From a virus (Duplodnaviria; Caudoviricetes), in IMG/VR virus record IMGVR_UViG_3300031994_000067, positions 1 to 64,000 of that record: a stretch of DNA of 64,000 nt; one strand, given 5' to 3'. The position numbers and the translations under genes were made by a program. Below the pieces are notes generated by a model. It saw only the letters and a program-made list of their open reading frames with translations, did not search any database and was not told where the DNA came from. This document shows, one piece after another, positions 1-64,000 of the stretch. Each line of letters begins with the position of its first letter. Within the stretch, counting starts at the first letter, position 1.

Positions 1-16
1 GCTAAATTGGTTTGTC

Positions 17-256
17 TTACCAGGCGACGTGTTTGACGTAGACGCCACCATCTTGATCGATGCGCGCCATAATTGTCACGTCGTGAACTGTGCCGATTGC
101 GAAGACTTTGTACACGCCGGGGACGCGAACAGGCGTGAGCATAGCGTCTGCCCAGTGAGGGTAGACTGCTTTTGCTACCGCCAAAACTTTCGCTTCGTCG
201 GTGTTTGCCATCTGCGCGACAGCTTCGCCGACCTTGTTTTCTTCGACATACGTCAT
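17..256 (-). CDS. Small early hypothetical protein
   Basis: ORF with AAGGAGG RBS before the ATG at 256, downstream of the TATATATTAT motif (342-351) and the conserved leader. Confidence 0.75.
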   Translation of the reverse strand: MTYVEENKVGEAVAQMANTDEAKVLAVAKAVYPHWADAMLTPVRVPGVYKVFAIGTVHDVTIMARIDQDGGVYVKHVAW

Positions 257-341
257 GATAAACATCCTCCTTAAAGATGTGTGGATCGTAGGTTTTCGTC
301 AATTTAGTACAAGAGATCCTACTAAACTCTCATACACCACG

Positions 342-351
342 ATAATATATA
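342..351 (-). promoter_or_regulatory. Putative early promoter TATATATTAT (one of 12 copies)
   Basis: Exact 10-mer in the sense orientation upstream of genes at 342, 8452, 10528, 12034, 24064, 24632, 28004, 49815, 52736, 58517, 59966 and 60516. Confidence 0.75.
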
Positions 352-424
352 TTCATAGGTGGGGGTAATGTCAGATTGTAAAATCGTCACAAAGGAGGGG
401 TTTCGAATCCCTCCTATAAAACGC

Positions 425-1600
425 TTATTGTTTGCTAACCTGCTGGATAGTGAATACCATAAACGAATACAGAGCTCGTCTGAAATTATTCAGTGTGCCT
501 ATTCGATTAGTTTTCTTATAGTGCGCCGAATATTTATTCAACCACTTATCCAGTATAACCTTGATTTTGATAACGTTCTCATTGGTAGTATTGGCTTGTC
601 CATATAACTCTCCACAGAAGAAATAGAAATCATTCGACCCTATCAACTCTTTACGGTGATGAGTTTCAAATATGAAGATATAGATCAGCGAAGAAACCAT
701 ATACTTTATATCCCCACGATTTTCGTTATCACCACAAAGATTTATCGCTGTATTACGAAGCTCATTTACACTAATGGCACAAGATTTGGCTGCCAAAGTA
801 ACCAATTTCATATCAGGTCCTTCCGTAGCCAATTTTAACACAACCGCATTAGCGATACGTTCGATGATAATTGAATCGTTTTCGGTCATTCTGAAATCAT
901 CCGGGTCATTAGAATCTTCGGTCTCGTTCATATAGGACCCCTTCTTCTCATTCTCATAGAATAAGATTGCAATTTTCTTAATAAGAGAATTCAGTCTGGT
1001 CTTATACGCATGAACATAATCCGTGATATCTTTATCAGTTCCTCGAATGATATTTTTCAGATAAGTCTGATTGCACAAGAAAGTCGTTTCCAATAAAGCG
1101 TGGTAGAAAGTTTCTGTGTTTCTAACCTTGAACTTATTTGACAAATTGGCGATGGTATAATCCATGACATTCTTATTTGGCTCATATTTGAAATATTTTG
1201 CGTGAAGGGTTGGATAGAATGATAAAGTGAAGTACGTTACCATCGCTTTCATCATTCGTTCATCTTTCTTGATAGCGAAATGTCTTATGCAGAAAACTGA
1301 TAATGAGTTAAAAGGGTTATTCATTATCTGCCACTGACCTTTGATATAAGTAGATTCTTTGAGAATCAATTTAACTTCTTCGGGATTTATTCCAAGGATA
1401 TTGTAGAACTTCGTATATTCATCGTCCATAAAGAATGTCCGATATACCGGACCTGATGTAGACAACTTAGCAACATTTTTGTCGATGTATTGACCGATGA
1501 GTTCTTCGAGGGCACTAACTGTTTTTGGGCTGCTAAGAGCAGCTCGAACTTTAGGCTCGAGTTTGTGCAAAAGCACTGAATTATCCGCCATTTCGTCCAT
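425..1600 (-). CDS. Hypothetical protein (391 aa), possibly virion-associated
   Basis: Long ORF with AGAAAGGA RBS; no motif recognised. Confidence 0.7.
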   Translation of the reverse strand: MDEMADNSVLLHKLEPKVRAALSSPKTVSALEELIGQYIDKNVAKLSTSGPVYRTFFMDDEYTKFYNILGINPEEVKLILKESTYIKGQWQIMNNPFNSLSVFCIRHFAIKKDERMMKAMVTYFTLSFYPTLHAKYFKYEPNKNVMDYTIANLSNKFKVRNTETFYHALLETTFLCNQTYLKNIIRGTDKDITDYVHAYKTRLNSLIKKIAILFYENEKKGSYMNETEDSNDPDDFRMTENDSIIIERIANAVVLKLATEGPDMKLVTLAAKSCAISVNELRNTAINLCGDNENRGDIKYMVSSLIYIFIFETHHRKELIGSNDFYFFCGELYGQANTTNENVIKIKVILDKWLNKYSAHYKKTNRIGTLNNFRRALYSFMVFTIQQVSKQ

Positions 1601-1671
1601 CCTTTCTATCGTTTGTTATCCATTTGTCTCGGGTCATCACAAAGCAATAAAAACAGAAAGGAGAATAACCG

Positions 1672-2826
1672 ATGTTATGGACTCCAACTCACAACTTCAA
1701 ACTTCCGAAACAACCAGTTATGGAAGAATACTACGGTACTCCAACAAATATCGCCAAAGCATTGATATACTTAACAAAAATCGTTGACGATATAAACAAA
1801 AGTACGGAACTCGAACTTATAAAAGCTGATTACATTAGCTGGAAAGAAAATCTTGAGATTCAAAAGCTCTTCGAAAGAGAGTTTGGATTTAAAGAACAAT
1901 ATATATACTGGTTAAACGAAACGGTTCCAAACGCATATACTATTGTAGGAGGAACTATCATCAACTCAAATCCTGGTATCACTTCAAACTTTTTTAAAGA
2001 CAAAAAAGCTAAATATTATGACAATCGACACAGTTATATCTGTAATGTAACTGTCATAACCGCTCTTGTCAAAAATATGCAGTTAACTCCTCGTGAAACA
2101 ATGGGAATAATACTCCACGAAATTGGTCACAATTTCGATAATTTGTGGACTACCGCGATTTCTTGGATTACTCATACATTGTTCGGCGGATTTCTCATTG
2201 GTGAAGTGTTAAGATATATATTTAGATGGGAACTTGAGGGCAAAGCGTTGATGCAAAAACATTTTCCAGTATTTTTCAGAGTGCTAGATTTGTTAACCAC
2301 TATGCCTTACCACCTTAACGTCATAAATGTTCCTAATATTACATTAATGAGAGAAATAATAGCAGGTGCTTTACCATTGAGTCTGATAACCGGAACCAGA
2401 TCGGAATACTTCGCAGATTCATTCGCTGCAAAGTATGGTTTCGGTCCTGATTTGGCGACTGCTACTGCAAAATTTAGCGATGCGAGAAAATCTGGTGGAT
2501 ATGCCAAAAGAGCAGTTTATCAAGTCCCAATTCTTAGGACAATGCTAGATATAGTTAACGGACCGATAGAACTCTTTTTACAAATATTCGACCCTCATCC
2601 AACTGATGAAAACCGTGTGTTGTCAATACGACAAAATCTAGTAAACGATCTGAATGATCCCGATGTACCAAAAAATTTCAAACCAGAAATACGCAGGCAA
2701 ATTGAAACTATTGATAATCGAATAAAAATGGATCAAGAAAATGCCATCGAATCTGGACTGTATTTTCAAGCTCTACGAAAATTTGTCACTTACAACTGTC
2801 CGCTCAAAGACTTCTACCACAGATAA
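1672..2826 (+). CDS. Zinc metallopeptidase-like protein (HExxH)
   Basis: IILHEIGH, downstream EYFADSFA and C-terminal DPHP, a pattern like M48-type peptidases; late-type promoter CACA-N6-TA at 1638-1649. Confidence 0.6.
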   Translation: MLWTPTHNFKLPKQPVMEEYYGTPTNIAKALIYLTKIVDDINKSTELELIKADYISWKENLEIQKLFEREFGFKEQYIYWLNETVPNAYTIVGGTIINSNPGITSNFFKDKKAKYYDNRHSYICNVTVITALVKNMQLTPRETMGIILHEIGHNFDNLWTTAISWITHTLFGGFLIGEVLRYIFRWELEGKALMQKHFPVFFRVLDLLTTMPYHLNVINVPNITLMREIIAGALPLSLITGTRSEYFADSFAAKYGFGPDLATATAKFSDARKSGGYAKRAVYQVPILRTMLDIVNGPIELFLQIFDPHPTDENRVLSIRQNLVNDLNDPDVPKNFKPEIRRQIETIDNRIKMDQENAIESGLYFQALRKFVTYNCPLKDFYHR

Positions 2827-2837
2827 ACAAAAAAAAC

Positions 2838-2869
2838 TAGGGTGCTGACATGATTTGGTCAGCACCCTA
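2838..2869. terminator. Bidirectional intrinsic terminator
   Basis: 12-bp stem TAGGGTGCTGAC/GTCAGCACCCTA between convergent genes, flanked by an A-tract. Confidence 0.7.
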
Positions 2870-2878
2870 TAACCGCGT

Positions 2879-5350
2879 TTATTTCTTGACGATTTTCACA
2901 ATGAGATCGCCTTTTTTGATCGGAATCAACTTATTGCCTTTACCCATTTTATACTGGGCTTCAACATCTATAATGTCGAATTCGAATGATCCTTCCTTCG
3001 TAACTGCAACGTATGTGTCTCTATCCGTGACTCCGTGTGCATACAGCATCATATCACCTTCACGCAAACCAGTAATGACATTGCTGTCTTTGTTACGGGC
3101 TTGACTATTGAGATTCTCGAGTTTGATTTTCTTAACATACCCTTTCATAGTCACAATCAGAAGGTATTCGTCTTTCGGTGACAAAATTACCGTATCGCGC
3201 ACATAATCGTTTTCATCAATCTCGATTGCCTTAACACCGATTGTATTCCTTGCTGTATCGGACACTGTGTCGGTGTGGTATCTAAGACCTTGACCCATAA
3301 ACGTAAATGTTATAATATCGCTGTCGTCATCGATATACTTGACAGAAATCAATGAGTCATCTTCGCGAATCTTTGCCCCGATGGAACTATTCTTCAATCC
3401 GACATATTCGCTGAATGCAGTCTTTTTAATGATACCACATTTGGTAGTAAACAAGAAGTATCCGTTGCTACCGGGTTTGAAATCAGGATGATACAACGAG
3501 CCATCTTCCCTGAGAATAAACACCGCAACTATAACCGCATTGTCAGATTTCGAGAATGTACTGATTGGATAACCGAGATGTGATAAATCGACACCTCGAA
3601 TTGTTTTTATCGGGATACAATGAACTCGTCCAATTGAATCAAAGACTAATAACGTATCGCGATTAAACACATTCACTTTGACTTCCATGGGAACATCATC
3701 GGCTGCTATTTTGCCTATATTCTTAACATTATTAGCGAGCTTCTTAATCATTCCTTTTGCGGTCACGATAATGGTGTGTTCAGTATTCGGAACGTAGCCT
3801 TTACCGGGAAGAGTTATGACTTTAGAACGTCTGGGTTCACCGTATTTCTCGATGCCTTCTCTTAACTCTTTAACGATGACTTTATCGATCTTCTTGGTAG
3901 TCTTAACCAAATCGATCAATTCTTCAATATCTTCAACGAGTTCGTCACGTTCTTTCTTGTATTTCTTCCGGATTCCTTTTACGTTTTCGTATTGTCGCAT
4001 ATTAGCAATCGCGTTCGCTTGAACTGTGTCGATATCATATTCAGAGATAAGATTCTGAATCAAATCATCGCGCGATTCGGAATCGCGAATTATCTTAATC
4101 GTTGTCGAATAATTGTCTTTGCTAAAGACCTCGAGCATCTCGTTTATTTGATGTACTCTAGCTTTCGATTCAACGATTTTGCGATGATAAAATCTGCGTT
4201 TGAAATCTCGTCTGTAAGCAATCCATTGTAACAAACACTGTTCGACAGAATACCGCTGAATACACAGGTCTGATGTGTTTTTGCTGTCGATTACAGCAAC
4301 CTGTGCTGAGAACGGTGCGCGCGTGCCGAGTTTTGTGCTATAAAGGAGTTCACGGACTTCGTCAAGGTTTACTTCAGGTTTGAAGCAAAGAGTTATCTTA
4401 ATAACCTCACCTTGACATTCGTTTTTCACCTTAGTGCAACCAACCAAAATTCCTTCTTCACGCATTTCATCGATTCCCTTAAAGAACGCTTCGGTGGTTC
4501 TCTGTGGAGGAAATGATTCTACTGTAAGCGTGTGAGCTTTTTCGTTTTTGGTTATAACTGATTGCATAGTAAAAGTATGAGACCGAACATCTTCATCCAA
4601 GAATCCTTCAAACTGCAATTTCTCGAATACTTCCGGCGAGTCAACGACGTAGCATCCGGTTGGAGAATCCGGAATCAAGTCTCTAAATCTCTTTTCCGGA
4701 TTCTGAATCAGATGTATTGTGTACTCCAGAATATCGTTAACGTTGTAAACCGGAATCTCTGTCGAATATCCCCAAGCTAATCCATCTCCACCATTGATAA
4801 ACAGATTTGGATATTTGGCTGGAAGATACAGTGGTTCGGTTCCATTATCGTCGAAGTTCGGTTTCATCTCAACCACCTTCTCATCGTAATCAGAGAAGAA
4901 GCAGTCGAGTGCATAATCCGACAAACGTGTTTTGAGATACCTAGCGTCCGCTTCTTTATCACCGAATCCAGCAGCAGAACCGTAATTCTCATCCAACGAG
5001 TCAATCATCGGAATCATTTTCTTCCAAGGTTGAGCCATCAAAATGATACAGTCGTAAATGCTGCTGTCACCATGTGGGTGAATCTTCATCGTTTCGGCAA
5101 TAGCGTTAGGCATCGTCGTAGGTTTTCCCTTAGCCGCTCGATAAATCGATGTAAGGGTTCTGCGAGCAACGGGTTTTAACCCGTCAATGATAAACGGAAG
5201 ATGACGAGCCATTACCATATTCGCACCATATATAGTTACGCGTTCTGTATTATACTCGCCAATGTTAACAGGAATGATTTTGGAAGATTTAGCGAAATCG
5301 CGCACATCTTTAACTCTTCCACCATTCCATTTAGTTCCGGATTTTTTCAC
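2879..5350 (-). CDS. gyrA: Type IIA topoisomerase (gyrase/topo IV) subunit A
   Basis: DGLKPVARR, HPHGDSSIY, catalytic ARYL and C-terminal pinwheel-like repeats. Confidence 0.93.
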   Translation of the reverse strand: MKKSGTKWNGGRVKDVRDFAKSSKIIPVNIGEYNTERVTIYGANMVMARHLPFIIDGLKPVARRTLTSIYRAAKGKPTTMPNAIAETMKIHPHGDSSIYDCIILMAQPWKKMIPMIDSLDENYGSAAGFGDKEADARYLKTRLSDYALDCFFSDYDEKVVEMKPNFDDNGTEPLYLPAKYPNLFINGGDGLAWGYSTEIPVYNVNDILEYTIHLIQNPEKRFRDLIPDSPTGCYVVDSPEVFEKLQFEGFLDEDVRSHTFTMQSVITKNEKAHTLTVESFPPQRTTEAFFKGIDEMREEGILVGCTKVKNECQGEVIKITLCFKPEVNLDEVRELLYSTKLGTRAPFSAQVAVIDSKNTSDLCIQRYSVEQCLLQWIAYRRDFKRRFYHRKIVESKARVHQINEMLEVFSKDNYSTTIKIIRDSESRDDLIQNLISEYDIDTVQANAIANMRQYENVKGIRKKYKKERDELVEDIEELIDLVKTTKKIDKVIVKELREGIEKYGEPRRSKVITLPGKGYVPNTEHTIIVTAKGMIKKLANNVKNIGKIAADDVPMEVKVNVFNRDTLLVFDSIGRVHCIPIKTIRGVDLSHLGYPISTFSKSDNAVIVAVFILREDGSLYHPDFKPGSNGYFLFTTKCGIIKKTAFSEYVGLKNSSIGAKIREDDSLISVKYIDDDSDIITFTFMGQGLRYHTDTVSDTARNTIGVKAIEIDENDYVRDTVILSPKDEYLLIVTMKGYVKKIKLENLNSQARNKDSNVITGLREGDMMLYAHGVTDRDTYVAVTKEGSFEFDIIDVEAQYKMGKGNKLIPIKKGDLIVKIVKK

Positions 5351-5361
5351 CTAACCACCTC

Positions 5362-7716
5362 CTATGAATCGATGTCGTCTTTATCGAGTTTGTATGTTTG
5401 TAAGAGGTCACGTCGCAAACTAGCGTCTGGTCCATGAAGTATCCTCATCATTTCCATATCTCGCTCGATGTCGTTAACGGTGAGTTGAATGAGTGAGCGT
5501 TTAATCGGATTCATCACGATATCCCAGAAAATCTTCGGAGGAATCGAACCCAACCCTTTCCAGCGGTGTTTTATCTCCAAATCATATTTACGGAGATTTC
5601 TGAGAATTGCACCAAGCGAAATATCCCGAATCCAAGTATCCGAATCGTTGTCTTTGTAGTCGAAGTAAATATTGTGGTTATTTTCCAAATAAGCGTCTGT
5701 AAGTTTACCAGACTTCGCTTCAAAGATGTCGTCGTGCATCAAGAACTGATATGCGCCTTTATAACTTCCATAGAACACAATACTCTTATCATTTTGCTCT
5801 TCGACTTTCATTTCTGGAAACGTTTTACGAAAATCCGCTATCGGATCTAATCCATCCATATGACCAACGATGAACTCGATTATATCCGGATGAACGAACT
5901 CGTGAGTATACAATTCTTTCAGAATATCCTCGTAGTTCTTGTTCTTAATCAGGAAATCGCTCATCTCTTTCGGTGTCATAATATGACCAGACCTTGTACG
6001 AATCTGAGCTTTCTTTACATAGCTCTTGACTTTCTCTTCGAAAAGTGCTGATTTAGATACGAGATAATCGAAATTTCCGTTACCTCTATCAATCATGTAT
6101 AACGGAGTTAATGCGACGTAAAGCATTCCCGCGTTAACAACTTCAGGCCAATGAAACAGAAAGAACGACGCAATACCGGAACTGATCTTCCAACCATCTA
6201 TATCGGCATCAGTCGAGATAATGTATCTTTTGTAACGGGATTTACGAATATCGAAATCTTTCCCGATACCTAAACCCGATACCTTTACCAATGTGGCATA
6301 TTCCGGATTTTGCATAATTTGTGCAGGAGACATGAACAACGCATTCGCTGTCACGCCTTTGAACGAAAGGGCAGCTTGAAATCTTGGATCTCTAGCTTTC
6401 ATTATGGAACCTTTAGCCGAAAGTCCCTCGATTAAGTAAAGCTCATTATAGTTGCTATCTTCTGTCGCATCGGAAAAGTTAGCCATCTTGTTTGACTTAA
6501 ACGAATCAATTCCGTGCATATCAGACTTTCTGATTTTAACAACATCCAATCTGGATTTAGCAACTTTCTTAAGATACCCTGCGATTTTAGCCACGACTTT
6601 GGGATGAACTTCGAGATATTCGGCAAGTTCTTTACCAATCATCGAACGTATCGGACTGAAGAGAGCCTTGTTTCCACATTTCTCTTTCTGCTGCCCGGCA
6701 TATCCCGGATACCGACACGAAAGATTTACGACCATTACCAAACCGGAACGACAATCATCATACGTTACCTCAAACTTCTTCTTATCGGTTGCGTTCAAAG
6801 TATCATTGACGAATTTGCTGAGAATCGAACCAATCGCAAGTCTTGCGCCAAGAACATGCTGACCACCTTCAATGGTATTAACACGGTTGACGAACGAGTC
6901 GCTTGTTTCTTCGATTTTCGTCGGGTCGAATGTAAATGCGACTTGAATCAAACCTATTTCGTCAGCTTTGCTAGAAGCTTCCAGAACTATCGGCTTAAAC
7001 AAGGTTTCTTCAGCTAACGACTCAGTATATTCGACAATACCGTTCTTATGTTTGAACTTGTATTTTTCCGGTGTGTCAGAACCTTTGCGAATGATTGTTA
7101 CATTGATAGGAATATCTTCCGTAATGTAAGACAATTTCTGCAGCCATTCGAGCAATGCGTCTGGGTCGATTTTGCAACTACCGAGAATCTCTTCAGACGG
7201 AATCATTGTAATTCTAGTGCCGTGCTTAACCTTCTTCGATTCAAATATCTTCTGTCCGAGAAATTTACCTTCGGAAAATTCGAATACGCCCTTTTCCGAT
7301 TTATCTTCAGATATCTGACGATGGATCGTAAACTTGAGATAATGCGACAAAGCATTTACGCAACACAATCCGACACCATTCTCACCAGCACTATTATCGC
7401 CGTTATCACGGTCAAATTTAGAGCCCGACTGAATCGTCGTAGAAACCATCACGACTTGTTCAAACGGTAAGCCGCGACCATTATCTGCTACTTCAATCAG
7501 GTTTTTGTTTTCGTCGAAAAGAACTTCGCAAGAATCACCTGGAGATTCAGGATTATTGTTTTCATCGAAGACGTTATCGATCAACTCTTGCACAAGATGT
7601 TTTGCTCCATCTGGTCCCTTGTAAGGGATATACATTCCAGTCTTTCTACGAATCTTCTCAACGTCGTCTTCAATATGACTGAAGACATCATCTTTGAAAA
7701 TTGATTTCTCTGCCAA
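5362..7716 (-). CDS. gyrB: Type IIA topoisomerase subunit B
   Basis: GHKL ATPase motifs (ELIDNVFDE, DNGRG, AGENGVG) and TOPRIM motifs (IEGLSA, TDADIDG, KGLG); TTG start. Confidence 0.93.
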   Translation of the reverse strand: MAEKSIFKDDVFSHIEDDVEKIRRKTGMYIPYKGPDGAKHLVQELIDNVFDENNNPESPGDSCEVLFDENKNLIEVADNGRGLPFEQVVMVSTTIQSGSKFDRDNGDNSAGENGVGLCCVNALSHYLKFTIHRQISEDKSEKGVFEFSEGKFLGQKIFESKKVKHGTRITMIPSEEILGSCKIDPDALLEWLQKLSYITEDIPINVTIIRKGSDTPEKYKFKHKNGIVEYTESLAEETLFKPIVLEASSKADEIGLIQVAFTFDPTKIEETSDSFVNRVNTIEGGQHVLGARLAIGSILSKFVNDTLNATDKKKFEVTYDDCRSGLVMVVNLSCRYPGYAGQQKEKCGNKALFSPIRSMIGKELAEYLEVHPKVVAKIAGYLKKVAKSRLDVVKIRKSDMHGIDSFKSNKMANFSDATEDSNYNELYLIEGLSAKGSIMKARDPRFQAALSFKGVTANALFMSPAQIMQNPEYATLVKVSGLGIGKDFDIRKSRYKRYIISTDADIDGWKISSGIASFFLFHWPEVVNAGMLYVALTPLYMIDRGNGNFDYLVSKSALFEEKVKSYVKKAQIRTRSGHIMTPKEMSDFLIKNKNYEDILKELYTHEFVHPDIIEFIVGHMDGLDPIADFRKTFPEMKVEEQNDKSIVFYGSYKGAYQFLMHDDIFEAKSGKLTDAYLENNHNIYFDYKDNDSDTWIRDISLGAILRNLRKYDLEIKHRWKGLGSIPPKIFWDIVMNPIKRSLIQLTVNDIERDMEMMRILHGPDASLRRDLLQTYKLDKDDIDS

Positions 7717-7773
7717 CTGCTACTCACATCCTTTCTTTAATCGCACGTCAAGCAGATTGTAATATACAAAAAA

Positions 7774-7844
7774 GCTAGAGTCGAAAGCGTGTAAGGAAGC
7801 CCACCGAGATAAACCCGGTGGGCTCCTTTTACGCTTACTCTAGC
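7774..7844. terminator. Long interrupted hairpin, probable terminator
   Basis: Nested stems GCTAGAG/CTCTAGC, AAGCGT/ACGCTT and AGCCCACCG/CGGTGGGCT. Confidence 0.55.
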
Positions 7845-7874
7845 ACATTCGTCGGCGCCGAGGAACAGGCTAGT

Positions 7875-8402
7875 TTACCATTTCTTGTCTTTCTTGCCGC
7901 CGCGACCCTTGCGGTCAAATGCCAGTGAATCCAAACCGATTTTGATTTCCCTCTTGCGCGCTTTTTCTTTGTCCTTCTTGTCTTTGCCGTGTGTCAGGAA
8001 TGCGCGCATGAATTCCTCGATGTTCGGCAATTGGAAACACATTTGCGCAGCAAAATCGCTGATTGCGCGCGACTTCTTCGAGTCCATATCGAGACCTGCA
8101 CGCTGCTTCAAAATTTCGCACGCATTCTTGACGGTTTCAATCGCTTCGCCGAGATTATCGAGACCTTCTTCAGGTTTTTCCTGTGAGAACATGCTGAGGT
8201 CAACTTCGGTACCGCAACGCGAGCATTTGTAAACGTGAGGTCTGCCGGTAGGTTGAAGCCGAGTTTTGCCGGACTTTTTGATGTGCTTGCAGTCGGCACG
8301 CATTTTGCGCTTCTTCAGCTTAACCTTCTTTTCCTCTTGCAGAAGATCGAGCATCTCGTCATCGAGCCCGTCCTTCTTTTTCTTATTTTTGTCTTTGCTC
8401 AT
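7875..8402 (-). CDS. Lys-rich early protein with a Cys/His (Zn-binding-like) motif
   Basis: GGAGG RBS; C-x2-H and C-x2-C residues; TATATATTAT at 8452-8461. Confidence 0.7.
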   Translation of the reverse strand: MSKDKNKKKKDGLDDEMLDLLQEEKKVKLKKRKMRADCKHIKKSGKTRLQPTGRPHVYKCSRCGTEVDLSMFSQEKPEEGLDNLGEAIETVKNACEILKQRAGLDMDSKKSRAISDFAAQMCFQLPNIEEFMRAFLTHGKDKKDKEKARKREIKIGLDSLAFDRKGRGGKKDKKW

Positions 8403-8474
8403 AGTTTTTGCCTCCTTCAAATGAGCACACAAGTTAACGTCATACGGGAGAATAATATATACTTCAAACTGTGT

Positions 8475-8768
8475 TTAAACATCGGTGCGATAATACTTCT
8501 TATCTTCTTCCTTTTCGACAAACACAATCGATTGAAGATTCTCATTCTCCTCGACACTATATTGAGGTGTGTACTGTTTGTTAATTGTAAACGGTTGCTG
8601 TTTCTTGTAGAAAATCCAAACGTCATCTTCTTCGTCCCATTTAACTTGTTCTTCCCAGGGGATTCCATATTTAATGTAGAAAAACTTACCGGAGTCAAAG
8701 ATGAATTGAATAACGTTTTTCATTCCGCCTCGTTTATCTATTTGACGAAGCCAGTTCTGCATTTCCAT
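8475..8768 (-). CDS. Hypothetical protein, tandem paralog 2
   Basis: 97 aa, aligns by eye without gaps to 8771-9064 (NWL..I.KRGG..N..QFIFD; DEEDDVWIFY; QPFTIN; LQSI.FVEK.EDK.YYR.DV). Confidence 0.8.
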   Translation of the reverse strand: MEMQNWLRQIDKRGGMKNVIQFIFDSGKFFYIKYGIPWEEQVKWDEEDDVWIFYKKQQPFTINKQYTPQYSVEENENLQSIVFVEKEEDKKYYRTDV

Positions 8769-8770
8769 GG

Positions 8771-9064
8771 CTACACGTCCCCTCGATAATAACGTTTGTC
8801 TTCAACCTTCTCAACGAAGATTATAGACTGCAAACCCTCATTAGCTTCGACGTGAATATCAGGGACACGTTTGCCATTAATAGTAAACGGTTGCTCCTTA
8901 TTATAGAAAATCCAAACGTCATCTTCTTCATCAACTTCGAATTGTTCTTCTATAGGAACATCCGGTTTGACATAATGGAAACGAGAGTTATCGAAGATAA
9001 ACTGTACGATGTTCTGCTTACCGCCACGCTTTTCAATGTGGTTAAGCCAATTCGCCATATCCAT
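8771..9064 (-). CDS. Hypothetical protein, tandem paralog 1
   Basis: 97 aa paralog of 8475-8768. Confidence 0.8.
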   Translation of the reverse strand: MDMANWLNHIEKRGGKQNIVQFIFDNSRFHYVKPDVPIEEQFEVDEEDDVWIFYNKEQPFTINGKRVPDIHVEANEGLQSIIFVEKVEDKRYYRGDV

Positions 9065-9276
9065 CAGCGTTTCCTCCTTTTCTTCGATTTTTTCTTACCA
9101 CCATGAGTAAATCCAAAACGCTCTCTGATAATTCTGACTTGGTCTTCAAGAATTTCTTTAGCGAATCTTGCTCTACGACGCTTATTAACAGACTTACCAG
9201 TAGAGACATTGGAATCTCTATAATTGTTTGTATAGGAACGCCTAGAACATAATTCAGAACCGAACTTCAAATCCAT
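9064..9276 (-). CDS. Small basic protein
   Basis: AAGGAG RBS before the ATG at 9276; Arg/Lys-rich. Confidence 0.6.
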   Translation of the reverse strand: MDLKFGSELCSRRSYTNNYRDSNVSTGKSVNKRRRARFAKEILEDQVRIIRERFGFTHGGKKKSKKRRKR

Positions 9277-9289
9277 TTCGATTCTCCTT

Positions 9290-10474
9290 TCATATAGCAA
9301 TAATTAATTTATTTATGGCTCTAGAGCACCCAACATAAAGCCACTTAGAGTAGAAGTCTTTACCTCTGTGAAGGTTCTCATTTATCAATAACACACTGTC
9401 GTATTGTGAACCTTGTGCCAAGTGACAAGTTATCGCATAACCATACTCAAATTTATCAAAAGAAGACTGGTAATTACGTTTGGTGAGATAATCCAAATGA
9501 AGATATTTCCAGTCAATAGGAATGGAATGAAAACATTTATCTTTGACAAAATCCGGTCGGAAGTCAATATCCAGAGTCCTCTTATTAAAGGACTCATAAT
9601 CAATATCTTGAACGTATCCGATCATTCCATTTATCAGAAAGATGTTATCGTCCAGACGACGAGACCAATTATTCTCCCGACATATCATCTTTTCACCTAA
9701 GGCAATGTCGCCTTCCATGTGATAGATGTTTTTCCGGATATAATGATTCAATTTCTCACGAGTATTATTGTAACCACAAATGATAACTTCGCTGTTCCTG
9801 ATAATATCCTCATGTTTCAGAATAGTCTCTTGTGGTACTATAAACACTCTATCTTGGTAAGAACCGCATTTGAATTCGTCCCATCGATGTTCTCTTGCCA
9901 ATGTAGCAAAATGAATTATTGGATTCTCTTCAGCCTGCCTCATTATCTGAGTCAACACCACATCAGGATGTTTAAGACAAGCTGGAGATCCAAATACTGG
10001 GGGAAGTTGATGTAAATCTCCCAGTACAATAATTGGTTTACCGAAACTTTTCAAATCATTAAAGAGTTTTTCGTCTACCATAGAACCTTCATCCACAATA
10101 ATGACTTTGATGTTATCGGGCAATTTGTCTTTCTTGATAAATTTCTTCGTCATAACTACCATATCATCAACCATAACGAATTTACCATTTTTATCCAACT
10201 TAGGAACGTCAATGCATTCGTATATAGCCGAGTGGATGGTTCTAGCCGGTAGACCTCTCATAGATAATACCATAGCGGCTTTTCCTACAAAAGCCACGTA
10301 AAGACCTTCATCAACCGAAATATTGCAAGCTTCTAATATCCACCTAACTAAGGTAGTTTTTCCTGTACCTGCAAATCCAGCGATTTCGAATACTTGTTTC
10401 TTACGTTTCTTAAACCATTTAACCCCTTTTGTTATGGCTTCAGATTGTTGTTCGTTTGGGGTGATACATTCCAC
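9290..10474 (-). CDS. SF1B (Dda/RecD2-like) DNA helicase
   Basis: Walker A GFAGTGKT, IIVDEGSMV, GDLHQLPPV, LTQIMRQ, YAITCHLAQGSQYD. Confidence 0.9.
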   Translation of the reverse strand: MECITPNEQQSEAITKGVKWFKKRKKQVFEIAGFAGTGKTTLVRWILEACNISVDEGLYVAFVGKAAMVLSMRGLPARTIHSAIYECIDVPKLDKNGKFVMVDDMVVMTKKFIKKDKLPDNIKVIIVDEGSMVDEKLFNDLKSFGKPIIVLGDLHQLPPVFGSPACLKHPDVVLTQIMRQAEENPIIHFATLAREHRWDEFKCGSYQDRVFIVPQETILKHEDIIRNSEVIICGYNNTREKLNHYIRKNIYHMEGDIALGEKMICRENNWSRRLDDNIFLINGMIGYVQDIDYESFNKRTLDIDFRPDFVKDKCFHSIPIDWKYLHLDYLTKRNYQSSFDKFEYGYAITCHLAQGSQYDSVLLINENLHRGKDFYSKWLYVGCSRAINKLIIAI

Positions 10475-10527
10475 ACAAACACTTCCTTTTATAAAAACGA
10501 TAATCTGACATCGCCCACCCTCCTAAG

Positions 10528-10626
10528 TATATATTATCGTGGTGTATAGGAGTTTAGTAGGAGTTCTCTTGTACTAAATTGCGAAAACCTACGATCCTGC
10601 CATACCTTTAAAAGGAGGTAATAATT
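10528..10626 (+). promoter_or_regulatory. Conserved structured early 5'-leader (one of 4 copies)
   Basis: TTTAGTAGGA...TACTAAA...AAACCTACGATCC followed by an RBS-overlapping hairpin; also at 283-351(-), 59886-59975(-) and 60436-60525(-). Confidence 0.65.
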
Positions 10627-10965
10627 ATGGCAAAAATTTTCACTGCGGAAGAGATTCGTAAACGCCAAAAACTCAGCGGCAAAGTCCGCGAGGTTATCGA
10701 CGTAATTATGCGCTATATCGTCATGTCGGCCGACAATGGCGAAAGCGACATTTACATCAAGATCGACCGCGACGTTGTTGACGCAGTCACCGACAAGCTT
10801 AAGTCCAACGGGTTCATCGTCGAATATTATCCGCGCTATGGAAGCGCGTTTATTGGTTGGAAAGAATACGGCGGCGGCGAAGTCAACGACAAACAGACGG
10901 GCGAAAGCGCGAGCGGCAAGGCGAATGTCACCGACAAACAGACGGGCAACTTCAGCAAACAATAA
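10627..10965 (+). CDS. Small early hypothetical protein
   Basis: AAAGGAGG RBS; TATATATTAT (10528-10537) and conserved leader upstream; terminator at 10975-11009. Confidence 0.8.
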   Translation: MAKIFTAEEIRKRQKLSGKVREVIDVIMRYIVMSADNGESDIYIKIDRDVVDAVTDKLKSNGFIVEYYPRYGSAFIGWKEYGGGEVNDKQTGESASGKANVTDKQTGNFSKQ

Positions 10966-10974
10966 ATGGTTGCG

Positions 10975-11009
10975 ACCTGACGCATACATTTGCGCCAGGT
11001 TTTTTTTTT
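10975..11009 (+). terminator. Intrinsic terminator
   Basis: Stem ACCTGACGCA/TGCGCCAGGT followed by a long T-run. Confidence 0.75.
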
Positions 11010-11044
11010 CCTCAAAAGACTTAATACTAAAAGAGGTGATTATT

Positions 11045-23992: not shown

Positions 23993-24073
23993 GAGGCATC
24001 TCCTCCTTTAAAATGTGAAACGATTTATCCGTAATCGAAGTCATAGTGACCTCAATCACGGATATAATATATA

Positions 24074-24595: not shown

Positions 24596-24685
24596 TCCCT
24601 TTCATTACAGAAGTGTGTCTGAGCGATTAAATATATATTATAGCTGAGACACAATCAGTAATTGTATCTGAAAGGAGTTGGTTCT

Positions 24686-26146
24686 ATGAATGACCTTGAC
24701 AATATGGAACGTCTGGTTCCCGAGATTGTCATGAGTGACTTTGGACCTAGGCTTGTAGTTGTTAACTGGGACACTGCGTGCGCGGTCCAGATGTTCACGG
24801 GAAAAGGTTTTCCAATCAGAAAACGCAAATCGTTCGACAATAAACAGAAGAAATACATCGACGGAATTCATTCGCCGCTGTTCGGAAGTTCGTGGGAAGA
24901 CGAGGATGCGTTTAAAGACCGCTTCAGTTGTGAATGCGGCTATCGCCAAGGGACGATTTATGAAGGTGAGATTTGTCCTGAATGCGGTACGCGGGTCGGG
25001 TATGTCGATGTAGACTTGGAGAAGTTCGGATGGATTCAGTTAAACACGCGTTACAAGATAATCAATCCGGCGATGTATGCGTTACTTCAAAAATTCATCG
25101 GCAAAACAACGCTCGACAAAATGCTTCGGTGGGATAAAGAAATGGATACAAACGCCCATTATATCGATACTGCTAATCCGAAAGATAAGTGGGTGTCGAT
25201 AGGTCTCACCGGATTCTACAAACACTTCACCGAAATAATGGAACACTTTTACCAAAAGCGGAAGAAGTATGAAAATTATTACTGGGAAATTCTTAAGAAA
25301 TGGGATTGTGTCTTTGCCAGTAATATTCCGGTCTATTCATCAGTACTCAGACCGATTTTCACTTCACCTGCGGAGTACCATTACACCAAAGCGGAACAAG
25401 CTTACAACGTCATCACCGGTTGCATGAACAAACTCAACCAATACAAAGGCGAGATCGATGAGACCAATATCGAGGCAATAAACAGTCTCTTGTATCAGAT
25501 TCAAACGAAGATACTTGACATCGATGAAATCGTCTTCAAAGCGCTAGACAAAAAGACCGGTCATATACACGATGCGATATTCGGAGGTCGCATGGATTTC
25601 TCGGCGCGCGACGTTATTGTTCCGAATCCGACACTTAGGGCAGATGAAATAATTCTGTCTTACCTTGCGGTGTTGGAGCTTTACAAACTGGAGATAATCA
25701 ACTTAATAGTGAAGATTCATGGTTGCACATATACTGTGGCTCTGAAATATTGGTTCGATGCACATCTCCAGTTCAGTCCGTTCGTTTACGAGATCATGGA
25801 ATACTTGCGCGAAAACTCGAAAAATGGAATGATCTGTTTAATCAATCGCAATCCAACCATAGATTTCGGGTCATTCATTTGCGTAAGAATCGTCGGTATC
25901 ACGAAGAGTTACGATAACATGACCATGTCGATTCCAATACAGGTGCTCGGAAAATTGAATGCGGATTTCGATGGCGACAATCTTAACATTTTCAGCCTGA
26001 AGACGAATCACTTGAAAAAGACATTTAATCGAATTCTTAACCCGACGAAATCAATGTTCATCTCAAGAAACGACGGATTCCTTGATAATCAAAACTTTTT
26101 GAAGAAGGATCAGTTCATCGGATTACATGCGTTCTGTACAATGTAA
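24686..26146 (+). CDS. Multisubunit RNA polymerase beta'-like subunit (N-terminal/catalytic part), likely non-virion RNAP
   Basis: Zn finger CECG...CPEC, GGRMDFSAR.VI, NRNPTI and catalytic NADFDGD; early motif at 24632-24641. Confidence 0.92.
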   Translation: MNDLDNMERLVPEIVMSDFGPRLVVVNWDTACAVQMFTGKGFPIRKRKSFDNKQKKYIDGIHSPLFGSSWEDEDAFKDRFSCECGYRQGTIYEGEICPECGTRVGYVDVDLEKFGWIQLNTRYKIINPAMYALLQKFIGKTTLDKMLRWDKEMDTNAHYIDTANPKDKWVSIGLTGFYKHFTEIMEHFYQKRKKYENYYWEILKKWDCVFASNIPVYSSVLRPIFTSPAEYHYTKAEQAYNVITGCMNKLNQYKGEIDETNIEAINSLLYQIQTKILDIDEIVFKALDKKTGHIHDAIFGGRMDFSARDVIVPNPTLRADEIILSYLAVLELYKLEIINLIVKIHGCTYTVALKYWFDAHLQFSPFVYEIMEYLRENSKNGMICLINRNPTIDFGSFICVRIVGITKSYDNMTMSIPIQVLGKLNADFDGDNLNIFSLKTNHLKKTFNRILNPTKSMFISRNDGFLDNQNFLKKDQFIGLHAFCTM

Positions 26147-27949: not shown

Positions 27950-28063
27950 AACAACCTAATGGGTATGACGCTCAGTCATACCCATTTTAATATCTTTTTT
28001 CTTTATATATTATATACGAGTACAAAAGGTTTTAATCACGCTATGCACTTAAGGGGTGATTCT

Positions 28064-30079
28064 ATGAAAGTGATTGACCGAGAACTCAGTTGGTTAAGTT
28101 TTAACTACAGATGTTTGGATAATGCGGCAAGAAGTAACAATCCTTTGCTCGAACGTCTGAACTTCTTGGGAATAACAGATTCCAACTTGAGTGAATTCAT
28201 CTCGGTCAGATTTTCTTATGTACTCGGAGGGTTTCTGAGTAACAAGAAGATTCTGGATGACTTGGGTAAAAAGAACTTTGAAAAGAAGTACGAAAACCTG
28301 TTAGAAGGAATCCTCGAGTTCAAAAATGAACAGTATGTCGTATATCGGTCATTGATGAAAAGTTTGAAAGAAGAACTTGGAGTCGTACTGATAGACGATT
28401 ATGACGAACTTCCGAGTAAACACAAGAAATTCTGCGAGAAATATTTCGAAGAAAACGTTCTACCGCTGTTGACGCCAGTGGCATACGATTCGACCAAAGA
28501 ACTTCCCGTGTTGGCTGATGACGAGTTGCACTTCTTGATTCAAGTTTCTGATAAGAAGAAGTCGGCAATCTGTCTTATGGCTGTTCCGAAACAAGTCGAA
28601 CGGGTCGTGCAACTCAGCGATAAAAAGTTCGTTCTGGTCGAAGAACTCATCGGTCACAACATCCATCGACTTTTCGTTGGGAAACATATAGAGGGATTCG
28701 TTCAATTCAAGACCTATCGTTATATTTCGAATATCGAGATTGACGAAGAAGAATTTATCTTGGATAAGGTTAAGCGTTACCTGACTGAACGAGACCTCTC
28801 GAACAACGCGGTGTTTCTCGATGTAAGAGCGTCCAAGAAAGACCAAGACTTAGTCAAGGTTTTATATAAACTCATGGACGTTTACAAGAGACACATTTTC
28901 GTCACACCTCGACCGTTACTTCTGAACTTCCTGAGTTCGCGGTTTTATGAAGACCCGAAATATCAATACAAACCGTTTAAGCCTCAGGAAGTCAATGAAG
29001 TCATCGGCGACAGAGGTATCATGAAATACCTTCAGAAAGAGGATCTGCTTATTCATCATCCGTACGAGTCCTTCGAAACGATTATCGACCTAATCAGGGA
29101 AGCTGCGGAAGATTCGGAAGTCATTTCGATTAAGCAGACTCTTTATCGTGTTTCGTCTAATCACTCTGCATTGATAAAAGAGTTGTGCAAAGCGTCACAA
29201 AATGGCAAGAACGTCGTAGTGATGTTGGAGTTAAAAGCACGATTCAGTGAGAAGAAAAATATCTCGCTTATTGAAACTCTCAAATCTGCCGGGGTGACAA
29301 TCGTCTATGGTTTCACAAATTTGAAGGTTCATTCCAAACTTCTGATAATCATGAAGAAGACGAAAAAAGAACTTCGCATTTTCTCTCACATTGGCACAGG
29401 AAATTATAATGAAGAGACCGCGAAGATTTACACAGACATTTCGTTCTTAACTTCGAACAAGAAGATTGGAAAAGAACTGAACGATTTATTCAACATGATT
29501 TCGGGGTTTTCAGCGCCTGGAAAAACAGAGCACATTTATTACTCCCCGAAGGGAATTCGTTCACAATTGTGCAAACTTATAAAGCGTGAGATCGCACATG
29601 CAAAAGACGGTAACGACGCGCATGTATGGATTAAGGTCAACGCCATCTGCGATAAAGAAATGATTGAAATCATTTACGAAGCCGCGAAAAAAGGTGTCAA
29701 GTTTGACATTATCTGTCGCGGAATCTGTTCGATAGTGGCGACGAAAAACATCAAAATCAAATCGGTTGTCGGTCGGTATCTCGAACATTCCAGGATTTAC
29801 GGGTTTTACAATGATGGAAAACCGACATTGATGATCAGTAGCGCGGACTTGCTTACTCGAAACCTTGACCATCGCGTTGAACTGATGGTTCCAATCAAGG
29901 ATAAGAAATGCAAGAATAAACTCGCGAAAATCTTTGATGTTACATGGGACGACGAAAAAAACAGTTACTGGATGATGAGTGAAGATGGGAAATTTGCCCG
30001 TGCGCACGGCAAGAAGGATTGTCATCAAATGTTTATCGATCACAGTCTGGAATCCCTGAAAGCTCGAAAGAAAAAGTGA
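28064..30079 (+). CDS. ppk1: Polyphosphate kinase 1
   Basis: RELSWLSFN, ERLNFLGI..SNLSEF, HHPYESF, IKQTLYR, ELKARF, KVHSKL, GTGNYNE, GRYLEHSRIY and SADLLTRNLDHRVE; start reassigned to the ATG at 28064. Confidence 0.95.
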   Translation: MKVIDRELSWLSFNYRCLDNAARSNNPLLERLNFLGITDSNLSEFISVRFSYVLGGFLSNKKILDDLGKKNFEKKYENLLEGILEFKNEQYVVYRSLMKSLKEELGVVLIDDYDELPSKHKKFCEKYFEENVLPLLTPVAYDSTKELPVLADDELHFLIQVSDKKKSAICLMAVPKQVERVVQLSDKKFVLVEELIGHNIHRLFVGKHIEGFVQFKTYRYISNIEIDEEEFILDKVKRYLTERDLSNNAVFLDVRASKKDQDLVKVLYKLMDVYKRHIFVTPRPLLLNFLSSRFYEDPKYQYKPFKPQEVNEVIGDRGIMKYLQKEDLLIHHPYESFETIIDLIREAAEDSEVISIKQTLYRVSSNHSALIKELCKASQNGKNVVVMLELKARFSEKKNISLIETLKSAGVTIVYGFTNLKVHSKLLIIMKKTKKELRIFSHIGTGNYNEETAKIYTDISFLTSNKKIGKELNDLFNMISGFSAPGKTEHIYYSPKGIRSQLCKLIKREIAHAKDGNDAHVWIKVNAICDKEMIEIIYEAAKKGVKFDIICRGICSIVATKNIKIKSVVGRYLEHSRIYGFYNDGKPTLMISSADLLTRNLDHRVELMVPIKDKKCKNKLAKIFDVTWDDEKNSYWMMSEDGKFARAHGKKDCHQMFIDHSLESLKARKKK

Positions 30080-58544: not shown

Positions 58545-59497
58545 GGGGTGCGTTAGAAACTCAAAGAAGGTTTTCAATTAAGTTTCTAACTGCTACCCAA
58601 ATGACCAAACCCTTGGCTGTCCGACTCCCTTGATTCGCGGAGGCTAACAATTCGAAAATTGCGCCGAACTATCTCAGATATACAAGTCCAATGCACTACA
58701 TTGAACGAGTCAATACGGACGATTGCTGCCCGGATATGCTGGAATGCGTCTATATACCACTAGGCTCTCAGCGTTCCCCCAGCGATCAAATCTGGGTTAG
58801 GAGCCACAAACGTGCTTTGATGGAATAGACTTCACGGATACTTTTTTGCGTAAGCGAATTCATCATATGAACCCTCTGACCATAGCGCGGTCCTGTCGTG
58901 TTCAAAGAACGCCAATTATGTTTGTATATCGTCTGGCGGGATTCCACGGAAGCTATCTGTCTGTCATTACAACAGGTTTAAGTCAGACCTCTTGGATAGG
59001 GCGGTACTCGGAATTATCACAACCCAATCGGCCACGCTACTCTACTGACACCGTTTCCATACTGAAGTTCGTTAGAATCAATAATAAGAAAAATTCTTTA
59101 AACCAGTCGTGGGTGAAATTTTCACGCCTCCTCAACAAGTTGCGGCGAAATACCGACTTCAATCGCAAACCTTTAAACCTCCTCCATCTATAATAGAATT
59201 TCTCAGAGGAAAAAGTTCCTGTCTAAACCACTACATGACATTTTAAAACGTCCTGCGCGGTATATATGTCCATAGGTAATCTAGGAAAACGCCACCCTCA
59301 CCCGTCACGTATTTTCCGACCGTATCCCTCTACCGGCTTCTTCTGAGCACTCAAGTTCTTTGCCGTTATTCCGCTGGTTAATCAATGACTAGGCAGGGAC
59401 TGTTATTAACCTTACACATAGTGTAAGTAAGTGAATGCCCAATCTGGAATAAACCAGATTTCTGATATATAGGTATAATTCCTCCGCAATCTCAATC
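58545..59497 (-). ncRNA. Candidate large (~950 nt) highly structured non-coding RNA
   Basis: No credible ORF. Long-range helices 59481-59495 with 58630-58643 and 59461-59469 with about 58670-58678; many local hairpins; G.U pairs read correctly on the minus strand. Confidence 0.6.
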
Positions 59498-59643
59498 ATG
59501 TAACCTGACGCGAAGCGGGGTGTTTTAGCGTTAGCCATCAACCACATATAGTCGTGTTAATAGGTTGTGTTTCAAAATCGAAGAAAAAAAACGCGCCGTA
59601 TATTTTGATAACGACGCTGATGAGGCAATGCCTCCTCTCTTAA

Positions 59644-59883
59644 TCAATATGCGCGACGATGTGTGTGACGACGTGTGCGATTTGCGTAGCGATGTGCGCA
59701 GTATGCAACCACGCACTCCACCAGCACTCTCTGAGAGAGCGCGTTCGCCACATCTTCAAATACGACTTCTCCGCTTTTGTCGAGACCGACAACGACCGGT
59801 CGGCCATCGACACCGTATGATATGTCAGCGACAATTTCGTTGTCGCCGACAACGACGAGATATTCGTCTTCAAACTTCATCAT
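59644..59883 (-). CDS. Small early hypothetical protein
   Basis: ATG at 59883 follows the repeated promoter/leader cassette. Confidence 0.65.
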   Translation of the reverse strand: MMKFEDEYLVVVGDNEIVADISYGVDGRPVVVGLDKSGEVVFEDVANALSQRVLVECVVAYCAHRYANRTRRHTHRRAY

Positions 59884-59885
59884 TC

Positions 59886-59975
59886 TTATCTCCGTCCTTT
59901 CAAAACGGATCGTAGGTTTCTTCATATCAGTAGTGAGTAATCCTACTTAACTCTTCTACGCGGATATAATATATA
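59886..59975 (-). repeat. 90-bp direct repeat, copy 1 (early promoter plus structured leader plus RBS)
   Basis: Identical to 60436-60525. Confidence 0.95.
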
Positions 59976-60117
59976 AATATGGGAGAGGGTAATATCGGAT
60001 TAAAAATCTCGTCCATACAATAAATTAGAGAAAAAAAGAACCCGCCCGTCAGACAACATGACGGTACCGGGCGCGAGATTGTTGCCGGTAGTTGCCCTAG
60101 GGCGGGGTGTGGGCATT

Positions 60118-60432
60118 TTAGTTGAATTTAACCCACCAGTCTGTCATTTCCACATCACCGGTCTTGGTATCGACACGGTACGTGAAAATGACCTTGTTGT
60201 ACTCGACGAACGGAGAACCATTGGGATAGCAGTCTGTTCCCTTACAGGTCACTCCGCTTGCGACCAACGTGGCAGTTCCGACGCCGGGCTTGCCGTAATT
60301 GAGGCTGACGCTAATCACGGCATATGACATATCATCACAGCTGCTGCCGTAATGTATGTTTCCGTTCGTCGCGTCGAGTTCGATTTGCGCAGCAATAGTT
60401 TTCTTTGCGCGCTTAACGTTGAAGTGTGTCAT
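60118..60432 (-). CDS. Small early hypothetical protein
   Basis: ATG at 60432 follows the repeated cassette. Confidence 0.7.
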   Translation of the reverse strand: MTHFNVKRAKKTIAAQIELDATNGNIHYGSSCDDMSYAVISVSLNYGKPGVGTATLVASGVTCKGTDCYPNGSPFVEYNKVIFTYRVDTKTGDVEMTDWWVKFN

Positions 60433-60435: not shown

Positions 60436-60525
60436 TTATCTCCGTCCTTTCAAAACGGATCGTAGGTTTCTTCATATCAGTAGTGAGTAATCCTACTTAA
60501 CTCTTCTACGCGGATATAATATATA
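60436..60525 (-). repeat. 90-bp direct repeat, copy 2
   Basis: Identical to 59886-59975. Confidence 0.95.
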
Positions 60526-60542
60526 CTTGAAAAGCAAAGCTA

Positions 60543-60575
60543 TAGCGGACTGAATCAATTTGATTCAGTCCGCTA
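60543..60575. terminator. Terminator hairpin after the RNAP beta gene
   Basis: TAGCGGACTGAATCAA/TTGATTCAGTCCGCTA palindromic stem. Confidence 0.65.
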
Positions 60576-63752: not shown

Positions 63753-64000
63753 CATAGGTTCGCTAATCCTATATCGCTCTTTTAAGAGCTGCTGTGAGTC
63801 CCCCCACAGACCAGACTATATCTTCACCTCTATGAGGTGTTCCCTGTTTCGCTCCGCTTGGAGCTACTCACTTTCGTGATAGTCGTTGAACCTTCCTTCT
63901 AATATAGAAGGCTTGGCTGCTGATTGTCTCTATTCTACCGATTGTTACACTTTGGTACGGTAGACCTAACGAGAGTTTCCAGCAATTAAGGGAATTTTTG
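63753..64000 (-). mobile_element. Group I intron (IA2), 3' part; 5' end beyond the window
   Basis: P AATTGCTGGAAA, Q AATCAGCAGCC, R, P7.1/P7.2, S and P9-P9.2 all present; exact 3' splice site uncertain (63733-63753). Confidence 0.88.

Follow-up and report, generated by a model that had tools for sequence, protein, structure and literature searches.

A recurrent promoter-and-leader module heads mobile early-gene cassettes in a jumbo phage of the sheep gut

In the first minutes of infection, giant phages equipped with RNA polymerases of their own switch on a wave of small uncharacterised genes. Here, we describe a promoter-plus-leader module that is found four times, each time ahead of a small gene, in a stretch of 64,000 nucleotides (positions 1 to 64,000 of the IMG/VR virus record IMGVR_UViG_3300031994_000067, Caudoviricetes; hereafter the window). 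Leaders of several kinds offer points of comparison. Among the Gram-positive 5' stabilisers (the cryIIIA STAB-SD, the polypurine element of the SP82 early RNA, the 5' stem-loops of ermC and aprE), a 5'-terminal stem-loop or a Shine-Dalgarno (SD)-like sequence that is not used for initiation shields the downstream mRNA from 5'-dependent decay. In the T4 gene 32 leader, a proven 5' pseudoknot is followed by an unstructured A-rich stretch that extends to the ribosome site, and translation is controlled by a protein. The put RNA of HK022 (putL/putR) makes the polymerase read through terminators.

Two systems stand closer to the module. The early promoters of phage AR9, which are used by the virion RNA polymerase, follow the consensus AAATATATATTAT-(6N)-G+1, and an unexplained predicted motif has been reported in early-transcript 5' untranslated regions (UTRs) (Lavysh et al. 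2017, PMC5312081). In the T4-type phages RB49 and phi1, the PeSL (promoter-early stem-loop) cassettes are units composed of an early promoter and a terminator stem-loop (Arbiol et al. 2010, PMC2839356).

The window encodes a divergent family-B DNA polymerase (divDNApol), a divergent DnaB (divDNAB), gyrase, polyphosphate kinase 1 (PPK1) and part of the beta' subunit of an RNA polymerase. This last fragment (RNA_pol_Rpb1_2, 24662-26146) shares 30-34% identity with the subunits of the Yersinia phage phiR1-37 and the Bacillus phages AR9, PBS1 and vB_BpuM-BpSp, and places the phage with those that have split multisubunit RNA polymerases of the phiKZ/AR9 kind. No nucleotide match to deposited phages was obtained by blastn against INPHARED. 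The source is a distant relative of AR9 and phiR1-37, an uncultured jumbo phage of the sheep gut; it was present in sequencing runs from sheep and goat gut, three metatranscriptome runs among them.

When the window was searched for the 13-mer AAACCTACGATCC, four exact matches were observed, at 283-295 (-), 10585-10597 (+), 59907-59919 (-) and 60457-60469 (-). No further site was present in the window at up to two mismatches, or in the whole 79-kb record at up to one. Each 13-mer is preceded by an exact TATATATTAT (342-, 10528+, 59966- and 60516-) and begins, in all four copies, 41 nucleotides past the predicted start of the TATATATTAT-N6-G promoter. The recurrent motif tied to four early promoters that the first-pass annotation of the window had described is thereby confirmed, and the repeat exceeds chance. 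With nhmmer, the 53-nt core of the leader gave E-values of 1e-13 to 1e-17, confined to sites behind early promoters.

Exact TATATATTAT sites number 12 in the window, every one upstream of an open reading frame (ORF), and a G is found at the seventh base after the motif in 10 of these, including the four leader copies. Judged by their sequence, the leader promoters are of the AR9 virion-RNA-polymerase early type: the early units of AR9 and PBS1 share the promoter core, the start spacing (TATATATTAT-N6-G) and the polymerase family. By analogy, transcription would start at 335, 10544, 59959 and 60509. A start at the G is supported by the leader itself, since conservation from one leader class to another (see below) begins exactly there while the six preceding bases vary (CGTGGT, ATCCGC, ATACGC). 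A sigma70 reading of the same promoters was rejected, as a scan found no site and the -35-like CTGACA is not conserved, CCGATA or CCGACA standing in its place in other copies. Both the leader and the upstream element that accompanies it are missing at the other early promoters, among them those of the RNA polymerase subunit, PPK1 and the gyrase operon. Full-length PPK1 (27959-30079, +) lies directly behind the early promoter at 28004-28013.

The conserved unit proposed in the first-pass annotation was real, and the extent given to it (283-351) was too small. The module is about 100 bp long and spans about -42 to +53, with an upstream element TCYGAYAT (-40 to -33), the promoter, block 1 (+1 to +20), some 20 variable nucleotides and the 13-mer (+41 to +53). 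Apart from the window record, pattern scans detected the leader in G001 (81 kb) and G002 (75 kb), two contigs with a mutual overlap. In total, 11 distinct copies (four in the window, seven in the related contigs) fall into three classes, A, B and C. The window copies at 283 and 10585 belong to class A and those at 59907 and 60457 to class B; class C, seen in the relatives, has AGUAGGC in place of AGUAGGA, so that of the AGTAGGA first described as conserved, AGTAGG holds and GGA is not invariant. The two class B copies are identical from promoter to ribosome site (about 85 nt) and amount to one independent sequence. Relatives were sought in IMG/VR (by pattern and by protein), JGI metagenomes, GTDB genomes, INPHARED (blastn) and AR9 (nhmmer), and in these collections the leader occurred only in the window record (G000), G001 and G002, the remaining matches being due to chance. 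The profile of the core recovered complete copies only, always behind promoters, and none in AR9. The leader family is thus small, with two independent genomes.

The upstream element sits identically in all 11 leader promoters, with TC.G..AT invariant and a C-rich tract behind it. In AR9, CCGTATTAAA occurs at the matching distance in about 9 of 41 early promoters (AR9 Table S2, PMC5312081), and the element may be conserved in a subclass of promoters, on which the AR9 paper is silent. Within the transcript, conservation is concentrated in the two blocks: comparison of class A with class B gave identity at 29 of 32 positions in the blocks and at 8 of 22 in the middle part (Fisher p = 3.5e-5, for block boundaries chosen after looking at the alignment). 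Block 1 is identical in 16 of 19 columns between these classes, and the 13-mer is invariant (13/13) in all three while its flanks are only about 36-43% identical between class A and classes B and C. The core is 52-55 nt long, and the spacing between the blocks differs by 3 nt among copies.

In copy 1 (- strand), the upstream element TCTGACAT is located at 368-375, the promoter core at 342-351, block 1 (GUAUGAGAGUUUAGUAGGAU) at 316-335, the variable middle at 296-315 and the 13-mer at 283-295, followed by the gene for a 79-aa ORFan (MTYVEENK..., 17-256) that has a 96% identical counterpart in G002. Copy 2 (+) comprises the upstream element and promoter core (10504-10511 and 10528-10537), the leader core (10544-10597, with block 1 at 10544-10563) and the gene for a 112-aa ORFan (10627-10965), which together with its terminator hairpin and 10-T run covers 10627-11010. 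In copy 3 (-), the upstream element TCCGATAT (59992-59999) and promoter core (59966-59975) precede the class B leader core (59907-59959, block 1 at 59940-59959) and a 79-aa ORFan gene (59644-59883; 59580-59883 with its terminator). Copy 4 (-) has a degenerate upstream element, TCCGCTAT (60542-60549), which lies inside a hairpin, a promoter core at 60516-60525, the same leader core as copy 3 (60457-60509) and a 104-aa ORFan gene (60118-60432; 60030-60432 with its terminator).

Thus, a cassette consists of the module, a small ORFan gene and a terminator of its own. In the window and the related contigs, the leader heads nine different small ORFan genes, all monocistronic, with a hairpin and T-run within about 30-90 nt on the 3' side of each. 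None of the nine proteins matched Pfam and eight had no match in PHROG, the ninth giving a weak match to two families of unknown function, which agrees with their earlier description as unrelated small proteins. The label of host-takeover genes that had been attached to them is a guess, because all are ORFans. The recurrence is genuine, and the motif belongs to a mobile cassette of early genes; very probably, the four sites are copies of a single promoter-plus-leader module that heads self-contained cassettes of early genes.

The mobility of the cassettes was apparent from a comparison of the window record with G002. Window positions 1-391 are 95% identical in DNA to G002 11742-11353, and 10502-10652 are 86% identical to G002 3799-3651; outside the cassettes, no other DNA or protein similarity between the two records was found. 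In both genomes these two cassettes face outward and bracket a central segment of unrelated DNA, which in the window (391-10502, 10 kb) carries gyrase A/B and other genes and in G002 (L091:3815-11353, 7.5 kb, L091 being part of G002) a sigma70_r4 protein, a 718-aa protein and others. As homology between otherwise unrelated stretches of phage DNA ends at the module's upstream boundary, the modules, on this sequence comparison, are mosaic joints like the T4-type PeSL cassettes. In both systems, a short conserved early-promoter unit is repeated many times next to small ORFan genes (non-essential in the case of PeSL), and differences between related genomes start at the units, which act as recombination joints. 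Unlike PeSL, whose promoter is sigma70-like, the module has a promoter of the phage virion-polymerase type, is conserved over the first 53 nt of the transcript, the invariant 13-mer included, and has terminators that vary in sequence and lie outside the conserved unit; a terminator stands directly upstream of the module in copy 4 only. In addition, a 3' unit is common to class A cassettes; it reads GCAACC-N5-GGTTGC, or the second half of this, and the terminators that come after it are nearly identical (window 10966-11010, +; L091:11727-11790, +; L091:2960-3031, -).

Concerning function, the leader is best read as acting in cis on the stability or translation of the mRNA, possibly by means of a 5'-terminal pseudoknot. 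A role at the RNA level is probable, the transcribed blocks acting in cis on the message. The first bases (GUA+K, then GAG) would pair with CUC...(G/C)UAC to form a helix from +1 (P1), the loop of which would present GUAGG to the CCUAC of the 13-mer; this would create an H-type pseudoknot right at the 5' terminus, with an A-rich linker after it. The most likely effect of folding in this way would be to protect the 5' end and to set the translation of the short early messages. Since the 13-mer is completely invariant, it is proposed as a recognition site for a trans-acting factor as well (protein, RNase or ribosome), and recognition by some factor is likely. Taken as a whole, the explanation by a cis-acting leader of early cassettes, with a role in stability or translation and a possible pseudoknot, is the one we favour, with a confidence slightly short of even; the specific pseudoknot and 5'-shield mechanism is more doubtful.

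The pairing potential was examined in the three classes. In all of them, +1 to +4 (GUAU/GUAG) can pair with GUAC/CUAC and GAG with CUC; in copy 1, the 5' arm of P1 would be at 327-335, its 3' arm (CUCUUGUAC) at 307-315 and the GUAGG at 318-322. For the +1 to +4 helix and for GUAGG:CCUAC, 100% of the alignment cells pair, the latter complementarity, already recognised in the first-pass annotation, being present in all copies. Every copy has the potential for an H-type pseudoknot, with 8-9 bp in the +1 helix and 5 bp in GUAGG:CCUAC, and in each of the classes the loops (2-4, 1-4 and about 14 nt) are sterically feasible. The sole compensatory pair is found in columns 4/28 of the +1 helix, with U.G in the seven class A copies and G:C in the four copies of classes B and C; two GA/AG purine swaps opposite U also preserve pairing in this helix. 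The data permit a 5'-terminal pseudoknot without proving it.

Compared with the 5' stabilisers, block 1 would likewise offer a helix from +1, together with an SD-like (U)AGGA(G) at +15 to +20. In contrast to theirs, this word is degenerate in the leader (AGGAG in six copies, AGGA in three, AGG in two); it is weak in class C, and the next AUG/UUG is 15 nt away. To our knowledge, 5' stabilisers do not have another invariant block some 40 nt further on. A ribosome-binding stabiliser of the Gram-positive type could reasonably be taken as a partial analogue. The AR9 early UTRs, when read directly, are mostly 26-50 nt long and share no 13-mer; the long ones resemble block 1 in having an SD-like AGGAG, which lies about 15-25 nt downstream of the 5' end and is in some cases accompanied by a mini-ORF. 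With the T4 gene 32 leader, the similarity would lie in a 5' pseudoknot (in our case a candidate fold) followed by an A-rich stretch, and the difference in that gene 32 is a single autoregulated gene, whereas the present leader heads many unrelated ones.

Several observations weigh against the explanation by a cis-acting leader with a 5' fold. First, the start sites were placed by analogy with AR9, and the contigs from the RNA runs do not cover 58.8-60.8 kb. The folding z-scores of the four window copies (-0.04, -2.5, -1.2 and -1.4) are unremarkable, and the predicted folds differ from class to class. RNAalifold retains GUAGG:CCUAC alone, with a covariation term of 0. The structural evidence thus amounts to one compensatory event and a never-varying GUAGG:CCUAC, in a covariation test that includes three independent leader classes only, and neither helix is proven. 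Furthermore, an alternative hairpin competes with the +1 helix. It corresponds to the one that had been proposed from the sequence at the outset (TTTAGTA/TACTAAA in two copies, AGTAG/CTACT in the two others), which does exist; in copy 1, its 3' arm UACUAAA is at 303-309. For AGUA:UACU with its extensions, 85% of the alignment cells pair, and no compensation is seen, the single compensatory pair lying outside this hairpin. In energy it matches or surpasses the +1 helix, and the thermodynamic model favours it in 5 of the 11 copies. The 5' ends of early transcripts are not generally paired either (mean 0.33 against a background of 0.41). Finally, as only two independent genomes have the module, gene conversion and selection are not cleanly separable, and part of the conservation is at the DNA level or comes from shared descent, since the upstream element is untranscribed.

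A general shielding of early 5' ends was also considered and rejected, no enrichment over random G-starting sites being detected. Hairpins predicted at the 5' end occur sporadically outside the leader family: the predicted early transcript from the promoter at 24064-24073 (-) starts with a perfect 11-bp hairpin at +1 (24033-24057, -), and that from G000 77572 (+) begins with GUAG...CUAC.

Another explanation would be that the 13-mer and block 1 form an RNA operator for a trans-acting factor, a translational repressor or an endoribonuclease, with structure playing a minor part. This factor would shut off, process or mark the early ORFan messages, as RegA and RegB do in T4. The invariant 13-mer contains bases (AAA, G, A) that are required by none of the helices proposed, it is predicted to be mostly single-stranded in class A (0.54-0.88 unpaired in six of seven copies), and it lies 18-29 nt before the start codon, at the 5' edge of the ribosome footprint. 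It is, moreover, restricted to the ORFan cassettes, being absent from the early promoters without leader mentioned above. GATC, which is retained in every copy of the 13-mer, is the most avoided coding-strand tetramer in G000 and G002 (263 seen for 678 expected, O/E 0.39), a deficit that suggests pressure from a GATC-specific restriction system. On the other side, a candidate factor is lacking. The k-mers of the 13-mer are not avoided in coding strands in the way of a nuclease target, only the palindrome GATC being depleted, and the 13-mer was rejected as an avoided-nuclease target for this reason. An RNA operator is compatible with our preferred explanation rather than exclusive of it; as a separate account, we find it unlikely.

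It would be a long shot to go further and take the mostly single-stranded 13-mer as the recognition tag of a dedicated trans-acting factor, delivered or made as infection begins, by which the mobile ORFan cassettes join one post-transcriptional regulon; if this were true, the cassette messages would be processed, protected or shut off together throughout the phage. A portable promoter-plus-leader with an invariant 13-base core would provide a handle on the stability, translation and silencing of early messages, and could be used as bait for the factor that reads it. The module also flags which ORFans are of the earliest class, and illustrates how recombination plugs new genes into the early programme.

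Other roles for the transcribed blocks were examined and discarded. A partner that is antisense to the 13-mer at 12/13 or better (G.U allowed) was not found in about 235 kb, apart from the opposite strand of the leaders themselves. A leader peptide was rejected: an AUG/UUG is kept 6 nt upstream of the 13-mer, but in 3 of 11 copies the frame is displaced by a 1-nt indel (RKPTI versus TKTYD through the conserved block), and there is no SD at a usable distance. An ORF antisense to the leader is broken by the indels between the blocks, and the tblastn match that it gave is an artefact of leader conservation. GGA sites of the CsrA type do not hold, the class C loop having GGC, and the hammerhead-like CUGA...GAAA of class B is missing in class A and has no Rfam support.

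Conservation could also act on the DNA, the blocks being part of an extended promoter or operator of a special class of early promoters, with a regulator binding to them or the polymerase sensing them. In favour of this, the untranscribed TCYGAYAT and the C-rich tract are conserved along with the leader, the CCGTATTAAA of AR9 occupies the equivalent place, GTAGG/CCTAC is an inverted repeat, and the 13-mer holds a GATC methylation or restriction site. However, other early promoters have no downstream conservation, either in AR9 (PMC5312081) or here, and the G.U pairs of the +1 helix are meaningful only in sense-strand RNA. From copy to copy, the distance separating the half-sites changes by 3 bp, a variation that is easier to reconcile with a flexible linker in RNA than with an operator of two DNA sites. 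A purely DNA-level function is in our view quite improbable.

The leader might have no function at all, only the promoter and the ribosome site being of importance, and the repeat would then have been spread and homogenised by recombination. This would account for the identity of copies 3 and 4, for the variant patches (loop GGATC/GGAGTT, TTGACG/TTGCG) that are distributed as a mosaic over copies and genomes, and for the end of homology at the module edges; the contigs from the DNA runs also break at the repeat. But two blocks are kept on either side of 20 nt at near-random identity, conversion tracts of 13 nt are implausible, and GATC is retained against its genome-wide avoidance. We regard a neutral repeat as very unlikely.

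The first-pass annotation had interpreted the leader as a ligand- or protein-responsive switch similar to a riboswitch, or as an antitermination element of the put/nut kind. Mutually exclusive pairings are indeed available (the +1 helix or AGUA:UACU; GUAGG with CUAC or CCUAC), and in classes B and C the UCC of the 13-mer can pair with the GGA at the ribosome site. Nor was a known family recognised: with the Rfam 15 covariance models, no leader was matched in the window, where only three group I introns passed the gathering score, and the best hits on 150-450 were snoRNA models with E = 6-8.5 (13-15 bits). Against a switch, the collection and alignment of relatives revealed almost no covariation, and none in support of an aptamer; the z-scores are weak, and the core has only 53 nt, half of it variable. 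The hairpins said to cover the ribosome site (ACATC/GATGT, TACCT/AGGTA, TCCGT/ACGGA) do exist, among them ACAUCUUU/GAGGAUGU in copy 1 (262-280, -) and UCCGUUUU/AGGACGGA in copy 3 (59891-59909, -), the 5' arm of which starts within the 13-mer; in copy 2, a predicted hairpin (UGCCAU.../...AUGGCA, 10598-10632, +) encloses the ribosome site and the start codon. Their occlusion of the site is no greater than background: the SD has an unpaired probability of 0.41 in the leader genes and of 0.42 in 112 other genes of the same phages (p = 0.5), and a special occlusion of the ribosome site was rejected accordingly. Like the put RNA, the leader is a conserved cis-acting RNA at the start of an early transcript; unlike put, it folds weakly and heads genes that each have their own promoter and terminator. 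Since, in addition, no terminator-like site was found within any leader copy, attenuation is unlikely and nothing is left to antiterminate. Beyond the bare complementarity, the switch and antitermination ideas are not supported, and we give them next to no credence; the first interpretation as a whole is partly supported.

A second promoter for a non-virion polymerase, which would allow both early and late transcription from the conserved middle and 3' bases as in the continuously expressed AR9 genes with tandem early and late promoters (PMC5312081), is suggested by the GTACTAAAT of the class A leaders and by the enrichment of ACTAAA before other genes, yet it is extremely improbable, given that classes B and C carry ACTGAT or ACTAAG, that the leader motif lies 47-53 nt from the start codon and not 19-27, and that no other match to the 13-mer at 12/13 or better exists in about 235 kb, which must include late genes.

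At least eight genes that lack an early promoter have the ACTAAA hexamer 19-27 nt before their start codon (for example 11026, +; 36285, -; 55068, -; and L093:20475, +, which is G002 60475). The hexamer had 14 matches in 176 upstream windows, compared with 4-8 for control hexamers, and is a candidate for a signal of the second polymerase (promoter or start motif) or for a ribosome-site enhancer.

In the neighbourhood of copies 3 and 4, a stretch of about 950 nt with almost no long ORF (58545-59497, -) separates the terminator of cassette 3 from the early promoter at 58517-58526. On the other side, the three group I introns that exceed the Rfam gathering score are located within 2 kb of one another, at 62001-62254 (-), 62317-62527 (-) and 63792-64000 (-), and are adjoined by an ORF for an HNH endonuclease (60954-61808, -).

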